A program made the position numbers. From an uncultured Methanosarcinaceae archaeon (GTDB lineage: Archaea; Halobacteriota; Methanosarcinia; Methanosarcinales; Methanosarcinaceae), in NCBI GenBank assembly GCA_963833425.1, contig CAWHXP010000002.1:160001-224000 (forward strand): a stretch of DNA of 64,000 nt, written 5' to 3'. Each line of letters opens with the position of its first letter. Positions within the stretch are counted from its first letter, which is position 1. Positions 27,001 to 33,000 of this stretch are shown here, in pieces.

Positions 27001-30000
27001 AGACTCCTATGAATTACATTTTTCAGTTCAGCAAAGGTAAGTGCGCACTGAGTTGCTTCCATGAATTCGACCATATCTGTGTGCCCAACAGCCGCTTCTA
27101 GGGCTGCCACGATCACTTCGAATGGCTTGGAAGATATCACGCTGAATCGATCGATCTGGACTTTTTTGATAGTCATGTTTTCTTTTTCTCCGTAAAACCA
27201 TTTATATATTAGATTCCATTGCAAAAAATTAAAAGAAGATTCACCGAAATAAGTGGCAGTTTAGGAATATATATAATGAATATTTAACAAATATATAATT
27301 CCTTATCTCGAGGCTTCGTAGAATTTAGGAGCTTTTTTACTGTTTTCTGAGAAAATATTATGCAGAGATTATAATGTTAAATCTGTGCATAATTTGAACA
27401 GAAAATCCACAAAGGAAAAATCATGGATAAATTAGAATTCTCATTGGCATATTGTTATGCCTAACTATTTGACAACTGCATATGCAAAGTGCTCATTTTC
27501 TTGTGTTTGATATTCATCAGTAAGTCCTTTGAAATAACGTTCTTTGATGTCTTCTGGCCTTAAATTTTCTTGGAGACTAAATCCTAAACTTGCTAGCTCA
27601 TCTCCTAAAATTGACGGATTTAAGCCAGTAATCATCGGTTCGCCTATATTTCTTAAATACTCCAACGTTTTTTTCATTCGTGGAGACGATTTCTCAGGGA
27701 TAAAAGCATCGGTATCGAGATAATCAAAAACAATAGTACTATCAGTGGGAGCAATTATTGTGATTGAGTGAAATACTGTAAATATTTCATCACGGGTCAA
27801 ATAAGGGGTAACACCAAGCCAATTAAAGAAGGTTTTAACTTTTTGGTCATAAGAAGATGAGCTAGTTAGTGCTGTTATTAGGCTTTCCTTCGTGAGATCT
27901 ATTGGAATAAAATGTAATTTTGCTGGATGTTTCCATCCCAACTCAGCAATGCGATGGAGCTTAAATTTTTGTGTAGCTGGGTGATCAACCTCAAACACTT
28001 CCAACTCTTCCATCATTTCAGGTTGTCGGAATGCAAATGTATCCATTCCTGCTCCAAGAATCACATACTGCTTTACTCCTTTTTTGATTTCATTTTTTAA
28101 GGCATCTTCAGCATATCGTGCACGGCTATTGAAAAAGCCTTCCAATTTACTGGTTGCTTGTCTTAATAACTCTGGAGTAATTGTTTGCTCAGATTGCAAT
28201 GCAGTATGAGGAAAATCATTCAACGGTAGATCATAGATCATATTTTGTTCAATTAAATGTTGTTCAATTAGTGCCCTTTTTTCCTCGGGTATCAACTCAT
28301 AGGCCAGAAAGTCGTCAAAGATTTTTTGAGTTGCATGTATGGAATGATAGGCACGCATGTAGGCTACCGTCATTGCAGTAAAGCTTGCTTGATTATCTTT
28401 CACTTTTATTGTCTCCTTCATTTAACCATCTATTTTTAATGTAACCTCTCCAAAAAAACAATATCCAGAAAAAAATTATAACGTAAGAAAGTGAATAATG
28501 TTTTGCAGAACAGATCACAAAACTTTTCGAATGGGCTCTAAAAAAGTTCAATAAACTCTTCAGGTGTCAAGCCAGACTGCCTGATTATTGACTGCAAAGT
28601 TCCAACAGGAATTTCATTATAGTCAGGGATGATAACGATACGTGTTTCTTCCGATGTTTTCTTTTTCATTTTTATATGGCTGCCCTTTTGTGAAACCACC
28701 TTAAATCCTTGGCTATTGAGACCTTTTATAATCTCATGTGCTGACAGTATGGGAAGTTTTGTCATGGGAGACCTCAATTATTGTGGTAAGAATCGAGCCT
28801 GCAGCAGGGATTTTAACATCTTCATCTTCAAGATAGAGTTCTATAGCCTCTTTAAGATTATCAATTGTTTTTTCAATAGTTTCCCCCTGGCTTGCCACGT
28901 CAAGTTCTGGACACCATGATACGTACCATTCCCCTTCTTTATGGATTACTGCTGAAAACTTATAGGTCTCTTGCATATATGAAAAAAGGTTGTATGCGCT
29001 ATAAAGATTTTCTCAAATATCATTTATTTTGAGAAAGTAATCATATCAGCGCTCATGGTTTACAAAACTGATATTTGAATGCACAGATTTTTCTATAAAA
29101 CCTGTGCATTAATGATGATAAAAAACAGAAACTTTGTCAGCATAATAATTGAATCTGCATCATACTTTTTGCAGTGAAATAAAAAATAACCCACATATGA
29201 CACATTTAAATCTTGAGAAGAACCTGATATCGATGAATTCCTCTGTATCTGGTTCCCTCAAGAAAGTAATGAGTTCTCGATCAGCCCACAAGATTCTTCT
29301 TAATGTATTGATAGGATAGCAAAACTATATCATTAATTGAACTGGCAATTGATTGCAATTAATTCAAAACCCAGAAAATAATAAAAAAATGTTTTATTTT
29401 TATCATTGATTGTTTTGAATGAGTATAGAAAAAATTTGGAGACCAGAAAATAAAAAAGTCTCTGGCTTACTGCTGTCTATGATTGGCATTATGCTCGGAA
29501 CCGGGATGCTTCCTCCGAGCCACCTGTGGTATCACCCTCGGTATACGAACGAGCACCGGTCCCTGCCAGCTTTCCGTGGTCCACGATTAAATACTCTTCG
29601 CGGATCTGGCGTCCCTCCAGCCAGCATTCCAGAATCTCTCGAGTACCTGCCGCGTATCTTGCCTGTGCTGAGAGTGAGGTGCCTGAAGTATGTGGTGTCA
29701 TGCCATGATGTGGCATCGTCCGCCAAGGGTGATCCTTCGGCGCCGGCTGTGGGAACCAAACATCACCTGCATAGCCTGCCAGATGCCCGCTCTTCAGCGC
29801 CTGCGCCACAGCATCTCGGTCACATATTTTCCCACGAGCGCAGTTCACAAGGTAGGCTCCCCGTTTCATCTTGCTGATAAGCAAATCGCTAAACATGTTC
29901 TCTGTCTGCGGATGCAACGGTGCATTAATCGTCACTACGTCGCACAAAGGCACCATAGACTCAACATTTGAGTGATATTCCGCATTCAGCTCCTGCTCCA

Positions 30001-33000
30001 CTTCCACCGGCAACTGATGCCGTTCCGTGTAGTGAAGTTTAACGCCGAACGGCTTCAGCCGCCTGAGAACTGCCTCTCCAATGCGGCCTGCACCGACCGT
30101 ACCCACATGCATTCCTTCTAGATCATACGACCTGGACACCGCATCCGCGATGTTCCACCCTCCACGTATTACCCACCCATAGGCTGGTATGTAATCCCTC
30201 ACCAGCGCCAGGATCATCATAACCACGTGCTCGCTTACACTGATACTGTTCGAGTAGGTCACTTCCGCTACAGTCAGCCCGTGCTCCCCTGCCGCCTGTA
30301 GATCAACATGGTCCGAGCCGATTCCAGCGGTAATCACTAGTTTTAGTTTACGAGCCTTATTAATTCGGTCGGCAGTTAAGTACGCAGGCCAGAAAGGCTG
30401 CGAAATCACTACGTCTGCATCAATAAGCTCTCTTTCGAACACACTGTCCGACCCGTCCTTGTAAGAAGTTACCACTAAAGTATGCCCAGCAGCCTCCAGG
30501 AATTTCCGCAATCCAAGCTCGCCAGAGACACTTCCAAGCAACTCTCCAGGTCGAAAGTCGATAGCATGGGGCGTAGGTGCCGTCTGCCCATTGGGATACA
30601 GCTCTATTTCCGGTATGTCTTTTCGTGCATACGACGGTGGATAGCCCGTTATCGGGTCGTCGTACAGTACACAAAGGATTTTCACCAAAATAAATCACTC
30701 CTTCTCTGCCACAATGACGAGTAAGAGCTATCGAAAAACGTTCCATAACTGAAAGTTGATACACGCAGGGATGTTTGATCAATTTGTGTAGATTTCATCT
30801 TTTTGTCTCCTGTTATGTAACCATTCAGCTTAAAGAATACAACATCAATAACCATCTTTTATTAAATTCTCTTGACAAATTTCAATGAATCCGTTTTTGT
30901 AACCGCTGGATATTGACTATGTTTTTTGTAAATTAAAAAACAATTTTGGATGTATACTATTTCAAAATTGATATTAATTAATTGTTTTCAGTAGGCTGAA
31001 CAGTTATGTTTGGTTTATGTTCCATTCCCTGTGAGCGCCTATTTATAATTTAGGAGTTGCACATTCTATAATCAAATTAAAGAATAGCAAAGCCTAGTGG
31101 AAATATAAACTTAGGAGTTCGATAAATATCTAGGCATGTCAGTGATTGGTCGAAAATCTTATGAATGAAAATATTTCTATAGAACTTATGACAAACCTCG
31201 TATTCTTCGAACAACGGGCACAAGACATGAAAGTACTTGAAAGTGCTTTCATACCAAAGTTTGGATATATTAATCTTTTATAAGATTAATAATTGACAAA
31301 CAATAGTCTTTTATTTAAAACCTTAGAATGATGTACAAATAAATATCTATATATTGTACAAGGTTCCGTTGCAAAAAATCCTTTCTACTGATACAATAGA
31401 ATAAAAAGAAAATCAAAGATAGTAATATGCTATCTAATTCCTTTAAATGGAAGCATTATGAAGGAGAAATTATCTTATTAAACGTAAGATGGCACCTAAA
31501 ATACCCATTGAGCTATAGAAATTTAAAGGAAATGATGATAGAAAGGGGAATTCAAGTTGATCACAGTACTATAATGAGATGGGTACATCAATATTCTCCT
31601 GAAATCGAACAAAAGATAAGGAGACATTTAAGACCAACTAATGATTCTTGGAGAGTGGACGAAACTTACTTCAAGGTAAAAGGAGAATGGAAATATCTGT
31701 ATCTTGCAGTTGATTCAACTGGAAACACAGTTGATTTTATGCTAAGTGAAAAACGAGATAGAAAAGCAGCAAAGAGATTCTTTAAGAAAGCTTTGAGTTC
31801 TAATCATAACCAAATTCCGAGAGTAATAACAGTTGATAAGAATCCAGCTTATCCATCTGCTATAGGTAAACTGAAAAATGATAAAATACTACCTAAAAAC
31901 GTAGGTATTCGACAAATCAAGTATTTGAATAACATTATAGAACAAGATCATAGATCTATAAAGCGAATCGTTAATCCAATGTTAGGATTTCAGTCTTTTT
32001 GTACAGCCATCAAGACTTTAAAAGGAATTGAAGCTATGAATATGATCAAAAAAGGACAAGTAAATGATCTAGATTACTCTATTTTTAATGAAGTCAAATA
32101 CATTAATAAATTGTTTGGTATAATTTTATAATGTTAGTACATTTTCCTTGAATATTTTGATTTTTATTTATTACTTATAGATTTACATATTTTTTTGAAT
32201 TTTTTGCAACGGAACCCTTTTCTGAAAAGCTAAGGCAATTGGACACCTTGCCTTAGTTTTTCATTCTTAAATTCATCTGCTTCATTTCGCAGTGATAGCT
32301 TTCTCATAGAAACTTGTATCAAAAAGATCTTCTTTTGTCAGAGGTTTCGAAGTGTAATTCAACCCATATAGAACATTCGAGAAATCAACAGTAGAATTTT
32401 CAATCGGTGCAGGATCTGTAATCAGTTCTCCATCCCATTCTTTTAGAGATGCCTTTATAGTTTCAAGATCCTCTGAAGTCTTATTTGATAAAATCTGAGC
32501 AGCTTCATCCTTATGCGCCGTGGTATACTTAGTTGCATTAATATGCGTCTTTACAATCTGCTCCACAATATCCGGATGATCCCGGATAAGTTTTCCGCTT
32601 ATCAAAAGCACACAGCATATGTGATTAGGTTCCATCTGCCCAGATTGTACGATGGTGCGCCCATTACCTGCCTTTTCTACACTTGTTGGGGAGGGATGAG
32701 GCAGGAAGACGGCGTCTACCTTTTTGGCTGAAATAGCGCTGACGGCGTCTCCTGCTGCGGCCATTCCAACGATTGTCACATCTTTCTCAGGGTCAATGCC
32801 GTTTTCCTTGAGCCATTTTCTCAATAGCGTATTTTGAATTGATCCTGGTGGATATGTAGCTATTTTGAGTCCCTTTAAGTCTTGAGGACTTGTATACTTG
32901 TATTCTGGCCTTAGAACAAGACTTGAACCATTTGTATTTACAGGTTCAACAATCTTTGCGTCAAGACCCTGGCTGAGAGCTGTAATAGCAGGGGCTGCCC

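Follow-up and report, generated by a model that had tools for sequence, protein, structure and literature searches.

Introduction

The closest described relatives of the gene analysed here are the bacterial metal-independent formate dehydrogenases (FDH; EC 1.17.1.9), represented by the enzyme of Pseudomonas sp. 101 and by the structures of the 6t8c/6t9x series. According to the available part of PMC4410396, the Pseudomonas enzyme has a Km for formate of 6.5 mM (Table 2), its canonical Asp221 excludes NADP+, with a D221S exchange switching specificity, and an A198G exchange stabilises the protein and lowers its Km for NAD+. Plant and fungal NAD-dependent FDHs (3jtm, 5dn9, 2j6i) share family and chemistry with the protein described below but are more distant from it (E 1e-100 to 1e-116), aligning only from residue 47–49 onwards. 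The F420-dependent FdhAB, a molybdo/tungstopterin enzyme, likewise converts formate to CO2 in methanogens. To our knowledge, formate-using methanogens depend on a metal-dependent, F420-linked enzyme, and Methanosarcina is generally held incapable of formate use.

Here, we describe an FDH of the bacterial type in a methanogenic archaeon. Our literature search returned no report of such an enzyme, whether described as NAD-dependent or as metal-independent, in Methanosarcina or in methanogens at large, and in the available part of PMC8027613 the term 'NAD-dependent' FDH denotes bacterial fdoG/fdhF. The enzyme type is well known, and its chemistry is unchanged by our finding; what is unusual is its presence in a methanogen. 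New in this study are the occurrence of the gene as a cassette in three chromosomal contexts, its insertion-sequence boundary, its dN/dS values, its cover in RNA libraries and the modules missing from the genomes that carry it.

An intact bacterial-type FDH gene in a methanogen

The window, a 64,000-nucleotide stretch of a Methanosarcinaceae genome (G000), contains an NAD-type metal-independent FDH gene of 399 aa at 29489..30688 (−). Its ORF is intact and opens with TTG as the first start codon, as in all five archaeal copies, which come from three MAGs (G000, G259, G260) and two metagenome contigs (L091, L092). Against the NCBIfam equivalog NF005750 ('NAD-dependent formate dehydrogenase'; cut-off 329 bits), the protein scores 689.5 bits, while the runner-up family, PGDH, reaches 164.8 bits, far under its own cut-off of 454. 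Pfam detects 2-Hacid_dh (PF00389, 6.9e-16) and 2-Hacid_dh_C (PF02826, 1.5e-49), together the catalytic and NAD-binding parts expected of the family. Of the same length class as the bacterial enzymes, the window FDH aligns without gaps over 384–398 residues, both to the Pseudomonas sp. 101 chains 2go1/2gug and 2nac/2nad (residues 1–398, E 1e-204) and, more closely, to the 6t8c/6t9x series (E 1e-211); with all of these it shares the two domains, the catalytic and Rossmann residues, and the bacterial-type N-terminal arm and C-terminal tail. ORF, family model, domains and gapless alignment therefore agree with the preliminary description, which had called the product an intact 399-aa metal-independent FDH of the D-2-hydroxyacid type. 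FdhAB is unrelated to this protein, which has only 2-Hacid_dh domains, no pterin or iron-sulfur domains, a different predicted electron acceptor and no F420 link.

In the gapless alignment, the positions of Pro97, Phe98, Ile122, Asn146, Arg284, Asp308, Gln313 and His332, which we take to be the formate-binding and catalytic residues in Pseudomonas numbering (an assumption that concerns all positions but Ala198 and Asp221), are identical in the window FDH, and the Rossmann fingerprint G/AxGxxG is present as GAGRIG at residues 199–204. Differences from the Pseudomonas enzyme include Gly in place of Ala198 and Glu in place of the canonical Asp221; nature thus supplies a Gly198/Glu221 version of an enzyme that is in wide use for cofactor regeneration. 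Glu221 occurs in all archaeal copies and, among 205 sequences, in 15 archaeal-type rows and only five others; the sister group has Gln at this position. Since residue 221 is still acidic, a preference for NAD+ would be expected, and the window FDH is likely to be specific for NAD+ and would act as a formate:NAD+ oxidoreductase.

Bacterial ancestry and restricted distribution

The FDH gene is of bacterial ancestry. Its G+C content is 53.7% (0.62/0.44/0.55 by codon position) against 35.8% for the whole 4.07-Mb genome, and the high-G+C stretch extends only over ~29400–30800, with flanks at 0.29–0.38. In our trees, the archaeal FDHs form one clade (13 rows, support 100) nested among FDHs of soil bacteria, and the sister proteins P0013, P0014 and P0016 are 82–85% identical to the window FDH. 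Of 284 Methanosarcinales genomes, three carry the gene, namely G000, G259 (96% identity) and G260 (95%). Leaving G000 aside, these are two of the 58 remaining members of the genus, against none of the 225 genomes from the other 30 genera; the gene was also not found in 400 further genomes sampled across the phylum. Foreign composition, bacterial descent and restriction to one clade, all proposed in the preliminary description, are thereby reproduced. Methanosarcina is a genus known for the uptake of bacterial genes.

Within the genus, the gene was not found in G236, which is as close as the carriers (McrA 97% identity; 92% complete), nor in G235 (McrA 97%, partial match; 73% complete), and relatives equally close by McrA therefore do without it, which marks the gene as dispensable.

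Foreign composition and the fact that the carriers are MAGs could also indicate a bacterial fragment misjoined to archaeal contigs during assembly or binning. We regard this as negligibly probable, given that gene and AT-rich flanks recur together in the three MAGs and in both metagenome contigs, on contigs of 184–455 kb, that five independent assemblies place the gene within DNA of 35–37% G+C, three of them with mtd and ftr beside it, and that the high G+C stops no more than tens of bases away from the ORF.

Neither the sister proteins nor the scans made with them yielded a name for the donor bacterium: when genomes were scanned with P0013, the best match was the Methanosarcinaceae MAG itself (85%), followed by Gemmatimonadales and other soil bacteria at 82–83%, and in a metagenome scan with P0016 the contig of P0016 itself was absent among the matches listed. 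A viral vector was considered, as one Atlas cluster of FDHs is labelled mostly viral; the FDHs on the 13 viral contigs detected are 69–72% identical, on par with bacterial FDHs, and this lead was dropped because the viral copies are no closer than the bacterial ones.

A single-gene cassette in three chromosomal contexts

Comparison of the archaeal loci showed that the FDH gene travels as a single-gene cassette of ~2.3–2.75 kb, in which the gene is accompanied by an upstream ORF, a Shine-Dalgarno site and a leader rich in A+T. The cassette occupies three chromosomal contexts and is the only part common to them. Three loci (G260, L091 and L092) have mtd and ftr 2 kb upstream of the cassette, an adjacency that is absent in G000 and G259. 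The gene is not in an operon and forms a stand-alone unit. The left flank of the G000 site has no syntenic counterpart in G259 or G260, showing just paralogues and repeats there, and so no empty site can be defined for G000.

At its upstream end, the cassette is abutted by an insertion sequence of the IS6/IS240 family at 31362..32216 (+). This 855-bp element has perfect 18-bp inverted ends, two arms of 100% complementarity separated by 819 nt, and encodes an IS240-type transposase (ORF 31427–32131; PF13610 DDE_Tnp_IS240, 1.3e-47). A simple insertion of the IS6 type is expected to leave a target-site duplication of 8 bp; none was found at this element, the flanks TTGTACAA and CTTTTCTG being different, which is consistent with a history of recombination or cointegrate formation. 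Transposase type, 18-bp inverted ends and abutment without target duplication are features shared with IS26-like members of the IS6 family, which relocate adjacent DNA, although here neither a second flanking copy nor any movement was observed, in contrast to these movers. The preliminary description was right that an IS240 copy adjoins the FDH gene, but not in taking it as a sign of bacterial origin, since at least 49 near-full copies mark it as a resident archaeal element of G000. Because it abuts the cassette in G000 only, and lacks a target duplication, we attribute this copy to a later internal rearrangement and not to the acquisition.

Leader, expression signals and selection

The AT-rich leader or promoter region at 30689..31357 (−) is conserved between G000 and G259/G260 (81–99% identity per 100-nt bin) and, but for weak matches of short length, occurs once in the genome of G000. 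A Shine-Dalgarno-like GGAGTGAT at 30694..30701 (−), presumably complementary to the 3' end of the 16S rRNA, lies 5 nt upstream of the TTG and is kept in all five archaeal loci. An upstream ORF of 38 codons with its own GGAG (30682..30798, −) overlaps FDH codon 2 with its stop; it measures 34–38 codons in the four loci whose translations were compared, and in the five-way alignment the L092 sequence is conserved over this stretch. Given the poor conservation of the encoded peptide, any role of this ORF would be one in translation control. Reading of the sequence together with the five-locus alignment identified a TATA-like box, TTTATATT, preceded by AACTCCTAA, at 31102..31109 (−); the motif recurs, with ATTATAAATA, at 31040–31049. 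It is largely kept across the five loci, with a few substitutions, mostly in L092, and may function as a promoter. Bacterial-type promoters and terminators showed no excess over shuffled sequences.

Also within the leader is a small divergent ORF of 40 codons at 31161..31283 (+), open in all five loci (31 codons in L092). By eye, G000 and L092 differ in this ORF by ~4 synonymous and ~4 non-synonymous changes, and similar but decayed sequences are found at other places in the genome, so that it is at best a weak candidate gene. A regulatory RNA in the leader was discarded as a candidate on the absence of any Rfam match at E ≤ 1.

The FDH coding sequence is covered by contigs of metatranscriptome libraries from four studies, of which three carry wetland or peat labels; in these contigs strand, level and DNA carry-over are not resolvable. 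One 1006-nt contig, covering 30063–31066, joins the coding sequence, the upstream ORF and the leader. In some runs, the leader is partly without RNA cover. A 3' end at 29477, where contigs from two studies stop, was rejected as too weakly based. From their labels alone, the runs suggest that acid stress and a formate load may prevail in the habitat.

Across the five archaeal copies, all of them intact, dN/dS is 0.06–0.09 at dS values of 0.16–0.43, indicating that the FDH gene is under purifying selection. The acquisition is old, as follows from dS of up to 0.43 among the copies together with the presence of the cassette in three contexts. The locus offers a clean example, open to dating, in which one bacterial gene was given archaeal expression signals and then reshuffled by insertion sequences. 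These values bear on the alternative that the gene is a neutral passenger of insertion-sequence activity with no function in its host, an idea suggested by its patchy distribution inside the subclade, by the mobile DNA adjoining it in an IS-laden genome and by a G+C content still distant from that of the host. Such low dN/dS over this divergence, the integrity of every copy, the conservation of leader, Shine-Dalgarno site and start codon, and the RNA-library contigs from four studies all disfavour a passenger, which we consider very improbable.

Metabolic setting and probable role

The carriers belong to a lineage without methylotrophy, as had been stated beforehand: MtaB is reduced to a 167-aa fragment in G000, absent in G259 and split in two in G260, and none of these three genomes yielded MttB, whereas relatives keep one to three intact MtaB genes. 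No FdhA above the TIGR01591 cut-off was found in the five Methanosarcina genomes examined (best score in G000 53.7 bits against a cut-off of 666). A FocA/FdhC formate transporter was likewise not found in the five genomes examined, nor an NADH module of the NuoF/RnfC type in G000, G259 and G260, absences to be read against a completeness of 76–92% for the carriers.

In this setting, formate could be an electron donor for methanogenesis, with electrons passing from NAD(P)H to F420 (e.g. through F420:NADP oxidoreductase) and into the membrane chain, as a non-canonical growth on formate in a Methanosarcina lineage that lost methylotrophy. Confinement of the gene to the lineage without intact MtaB or MttB, the missing canonical FdhA, the position of the cassette downstream of mtd and ftr in three loci, the strength of selection, and a non-canonical residue 221, with Gln there in the sister group, would all fit this role. 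We nevertheless hold it to be unlikely that the FDH is an entry of formate electrons into methanogenesis: neither the NADH module nor the transporter was found, two of the three carrier genomes lack the mtd/ftr adjacency, and close relatives live without the gene. Moreover, as far as the available part of PMC4410396 goes, an acidic residue 221 speaks for NAD+ and not NADP+, and the millimolar Km of the enzyme class stands against micromolar environmental formate, so that a value such as that of the Pseudomonas enzyme would suit formate accumulated inside the cell. Equally doubtful to us is a scenario in which a wetland or peat lineage shed methylotrophy and domesticated the FDH, its NAD(P)H feeding metabolism as well as methanogenesis via a putative F420/ferredoxin link; if true, this would be the first methanogen using formate without the F420-dependent molybdo/tungsto-enzyme, and the lineage-wide Glu221 could belong to such an adaptation.

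The enzyme might alternatively run in reverse, NADH reducing CO2 to provide a small supply of formate for biosynthesis, for example of purines. Archaeal purine enzymes can use free formate, and no other recognisable formate dehydrogenase is present in the carrier genomes; however, CO2 reduction is strongly unfavourable for NAD-linked FDHs, and 56 of the 58 other genomes of the genus cope without the gene, leaving this reading decidedly improbable.

We consider it probable instead that the window FDH is a stand-alone cytoplasmic means of formate disposal and NADH supply, and not a part of methanogenesis from formate. The ancestor of a small wetland or peat Methanosarcina lineage would have acquired the gene from a soil bacterium and retained it as a monocistronic cassette in which an archaeal-style AT-rich leader and a strong Shine-Dalgarno site precede the TTG start codon, while rearrangement of the IS-rich genome would have shifted the cassette between chromosomal places. 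The protein, probably a homodimer, would transfer hydride without a bound cofactor directly from formate to NAD+, giving CO2 and NADH, with the NADH used in biosynthesis being a by-product of disposal. Formate may enter by diffusion as formic acid or arise from the cell's own metabolism. A selectively maintained NAD-linked FDH in wetland and peat RNA libraries points to a secondary path that formate carbon may take in methane-producing soils.

Dispersed repeats downstream of the gene

Downstream of the gene, conservation of the cassette continues over a 3' flank at 29100..29488 (−), an extent taken from locus comparison, with T-runs past the stop. A hairpin past the FDH stop was on par with shuffled sequences (z −0.6). 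Within the flank lie two short dispersed repeats, at ~29078–29185 and 29312–29388, each with dozens of genomic copies. A further repeat with more than 100 matches in the genome was at first equated with the neighbouring LCM methyltransferase gene, an assignment we rejected, since that family has just six full copies; the repeat is a decayed insertion sequence with DDE_Tnp_1 and DUF772 domains.

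An NAD-type formate dehydrogenase with an altered cofactor site

The uninterrupted reading frame of 399 codons at 29489-30688 on the minus strand, whose first possible start is a TTG, encodes a protein scoring 689.5 bits against NF005750, the NCBIfam equivalog model for NAD-dependent formate dehydrogenase (FDH; cut-off 329), with the remaining NCBIfam dehydrogenase models scoring far under their own cut-offs. Its Pfam domains are 2-Hacid_dh and 2-Hacid_dh_C. The top solved-structure matches were the 6t8c/6t9x series (E ~1e-211, gapless over residues 1-384) and the Pseudomonas sp. 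101 FDH chains 2go1/2gug and 2nac/2nad (E ~1e-204, gapless over residues 1-398), whereas plant and yeast FDHs were more distant (1e-100 to 1e-116), with alignments starting only at residue 47-49. The GxGxxG fingerprint and the positions of Pro97, Phe98, Ile122, Asn146, Arg284, Asp308, Gln313 and His332, numbered as in the Pseudomonas enzyme, are all identical in the window's protein. This kind of enzyme is itself thoroughly known, and the uptake of bacterial genes by Methanosarcina is well known; full-text literature searches turned up no account of a methanogen with a metal-independent NAD-FDH. The gene has an instructive history of domestication and relocation, and offers a testable ecological angle.

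In contrast to the Pseudomonas enzyme, the window's protein carries Gly for Ala198 and Glu for Asp221. According to PMC4410396, the A198G substitution makes the enzyme 2.5-fold more thermally stable and reduces its Km for NAD+; D221S turns the enzyme to NADP+. Because Glu at position 221 retains the negative charge, a preference for NAD+ is likely. Thr-Glu-Arg occupies this site in 20 of 205 tabulated FDH sequences (15 archaeal-type rows and five others), with Asp in 176, Gln in four and no readable motif in five. Gln was seen in the sister-group FDHs P0014, P0016, P0021 and P0071, and also in the 6t9x chain, all of which may naturally accept NADP+.

A single foreign gene nested among bacterial homologues

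The G+C content of the reading frame is 0.537 (0.62, 0.44 and 0.55 at the three codon positions), compared with 0.358 genome-wide (4.07 Mb) and 0.348 across the window. Values above 0.5, measured in 400-nt windows, are restricted to ~29400-30800, with 0.29-0.38 on either side, so that the foreign stretch is essentially one gene long. The gene is single-copy, the four further matches in the genome being distant 2-hydroxyacid dehydrogenase paralogues (28-31% identity).

Among 5.8 billion clusters searched, the top matches were 11 full-length clusters (93-97% identity) and two shorter proteins (95-98%), below which there was a gap down to three metagenomic proteins (P0013, P0014 and P0016, at 85%, 84% and 82%) and then a broad plateau at ~77-82%. 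The best 80 of at least 592 loci in species-representative genomes comprised one Methanosarcinaceae metagenome-assembled genome (MAG; 95%) and 79 bacterial records (70-80%), mostly soil MAGs of Gemmatimonadota, Actinomycetota and Alphaproteobacteria. In midpoint-rooted trees omitting sequences under 380 residues (FastTree, 196 sequences; IQ-TREE, 72 sequences, also omitting every second named bacterial locus), the archaeal copies formed one clade of 13 rows with a support of 100; this lay within a 19-row clade (support 98-99) shared with six metagenomic proteins, the whole being nested among bacterial FDHs. NAD-type FDHs are also encoded by thirteen IMG/VR viral contigs (L250-L262), only 69-72% identical to the window's protein, and one Atlas cluster of such enzymes is labelled mostly viral.

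Patchy distribution within a Methanosarcina subclade

At E <= 1e-60, the FDH was detected in three of 284 Methanosarcinales genomes, namely the source genome (G000), G259 (96%) and G260 (95%), corresponding to two of the 58 other genomes of the genus and none of 225 genomes from 30 other Methanosarcinales genera. The FDH family model found no match in 400 other genomes sampled from the phylum, nor in 14 control genomes, with the source genome as sole positive control. Ranked by McrA, the one marker on which the subclade relationships rest, the nearest relatives of the source genome are G236 (97%; 92% complete), G235 (97% over a partial match; 73% complete), G259 (96%) and G257 (95%; 77% complete), the G260 assembly being without mcrA. 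The search of Methanosarcinales genomes found no FDH in G236, G235 or G257. The gene is thus patchy within the subclade, whether through loss, incompleteness or limited transfer.

A shared cassette in three chromosomal contexts

Alignment of the three genomic loci showed that they share only ~29100-31357, consisting of the gene with ~390 nt downstream and ~670 nt upstream. This cassette is 93.8% identical between the source genome and G259 and 88.4% between the source genome and G260; G259 and G260 have a further ~480 nt of common upstream sequence, giving 2754 nt in total. Two metagenome contigs (L091 and L092) carry the cassette with an FDH protein 94% identical and flanks of 35% G+C, in the same context as in G260; that the locus is an artefact is barely conceivable.

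In G260 (L090 4820-7412) and these contigs, the cassette has mtd and ftr 2 kb away on its upstream side and two M24 peptidase genes on its downstream side; in G259 its two flanking genes encode DJ-1/PfpI and GNAT proteins. In the source genome, a HicAB pair and an LCM-type methyltransferase border one side of it, with an IS240 element and an NMT1-like binding protein bordering the other. The mtd-ftr pair of the three other assemblies falls within a region that is unbroken in the source genome, where the flanks of the G260 locus adjoin each other (C2:430715-431103) and mtd and ftr are on another contig. Other segments matched between these genomes (87-93% identity) have diverged about as much as the cassette (88-94%), which is consistent with vertical descent, although this comparison falls short of a formal test. 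The most economical explanation is a single acquisition with later rearrangement mediated by insertion sequences and repeats.

In the source genome, the shared sequence breaks off within 1-5 nt of the border of an IS6/IS240 element of 855 bp (31362-32216), which has perfect 18-nt inverted ends and flanking 8-mers unlike each other. The family, an old and abundant resident, has at least 49 near-full copies in the source genome, and the others share only 85-91% identity with the present one. The downstream end lies inside one of two short dispersed repeats (~75-110 nt; 29078-29185 and 29312-29388), each with dozens of copies genome-wide, on which contigs from RNA libraries accumulate. Small overlapping reading frames directly beyond (28538-28976, minus strand) match a HicA toxin (1.5e-15) and, weakly, a HicB-like antitoxin (7e-4). 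The LCM (leucine carboxyl methyltransferase)-like gene (27465-28421, minus strand) belongs to a family of six full-length copies in the source genome (61-74% protein identity); at the nucleotide level, G259 and G260 each show about ten matches to it (72-88% identity).

A dispersed repeat of ~0.93 kb gave 169 HSPs in the source genome; 69 reach 850 bp or more at 70-81% identity, so that at least 69 copies are near-full. Only two copies have an open frame of at least 200 aa, and the longest reading frame detected (259 aa) encodes the transposase domains DUF772 and DDE_Tnp_1, which together mark the repeat as a decayed insertion sequence family. A partial copy lies at 38569-38895 in the window, and the repeat is also represented at L263:536-1315.

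Expression signals, selection and RNA

All five archaeal copies start with TTG, while the bacterial homologues compared open with Met-Ala-Lys. The start codon is preceded at 5 nt by GGAGTGAT, and in all four loci translated, an upstream reading frame of 34-38 codons with its own GGAG ends in overlap with the second FDH codon, its peptide being poorly conserved. Further upstream are two TATA-like boxes (31102-31109 and 31040-31049), each following AACTCCTAA and largely conserved in the five loci; a transcription start is predicted ~25 nt past the first of these. Leader identity between the source genome and G259 or G260 is 81-99% per 100-nt bin, with no Rfam match in the leader. A divergent 40-codon frame on the plus strand (31161-31283) stays open throughout the five archaeal loci, with weak coding evidence; degenerate look-alikes occur at C3:186179-186232 and C8:51269-51337.

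Pairwise Nei-Gojobori comparison of the five archaeal genes gave dN/dS of 0.062-0.092 at dS of 0.16-0.43, and we consider it very improbable that the gene is a neutral passenger. Seven metatranscriptome runs from four studies contained 7-19% of the sampled words. In four of these runs, one per study, RNA-library contigs cover the coding region at 90-99% likeness, and one contig of 1006 nt spans 30063-31066, including coding sequence, upstream frame and leader; such contigs show presence rather than strand, level or freedom from DNA.

A probable formate sink in genomes with decaying methylotrophy

We favour a role as a cytoplasmic formate sink yielding NADH over formate-driven methanogenesis. 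This preference draws on the type of enzyme, on the stand-alone nature of its cassette, on the lack of both a transporter and a point of entry for NADH into the membrane chain, and on the Km of characterised homologues, which is millimolar (6.5 mM for formate in wild-type Pseudomonas FDH; PMC4410396). Neither a FocA/FdhC-type transporter (PF01226) nor FdhA above the TIGR01591 cut-off was found in any of five Methanosarcina genomes, and a search for the NuoF/RnfC domain (PF01512) gave nothing in G000, G259, G260 or G236 and one match in G216. A supply of electrons to methanogenesis via NAD(P)H appears unlikely against this background, and operation in reverse, making biosynthetic formate, less likely still. 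An NADH-yielding formate sink would benefit cells exposed to an influx of formic acid or to accumulating formate.

The carrier genomes are 76-92% complete, and genes missing from them are reported as not found rather than as proven absences. MttB was not found in G000, G259, G260 or G236, with two copies in G216. MtaB was not found in G259 or in G235 (73% complete); intact copies number one in G236, two in G257 (plus a split copy) and three each in G216, G217, G221 and G229. The other two carriers retain relics of mtaB, a 167-aa fragment in the source genome (C3:66493-66939) and two adjoining pieces in G260 (C19:109133-110505), providing direct evidence of decaying methylotrophy in FDH-bearing genomes.
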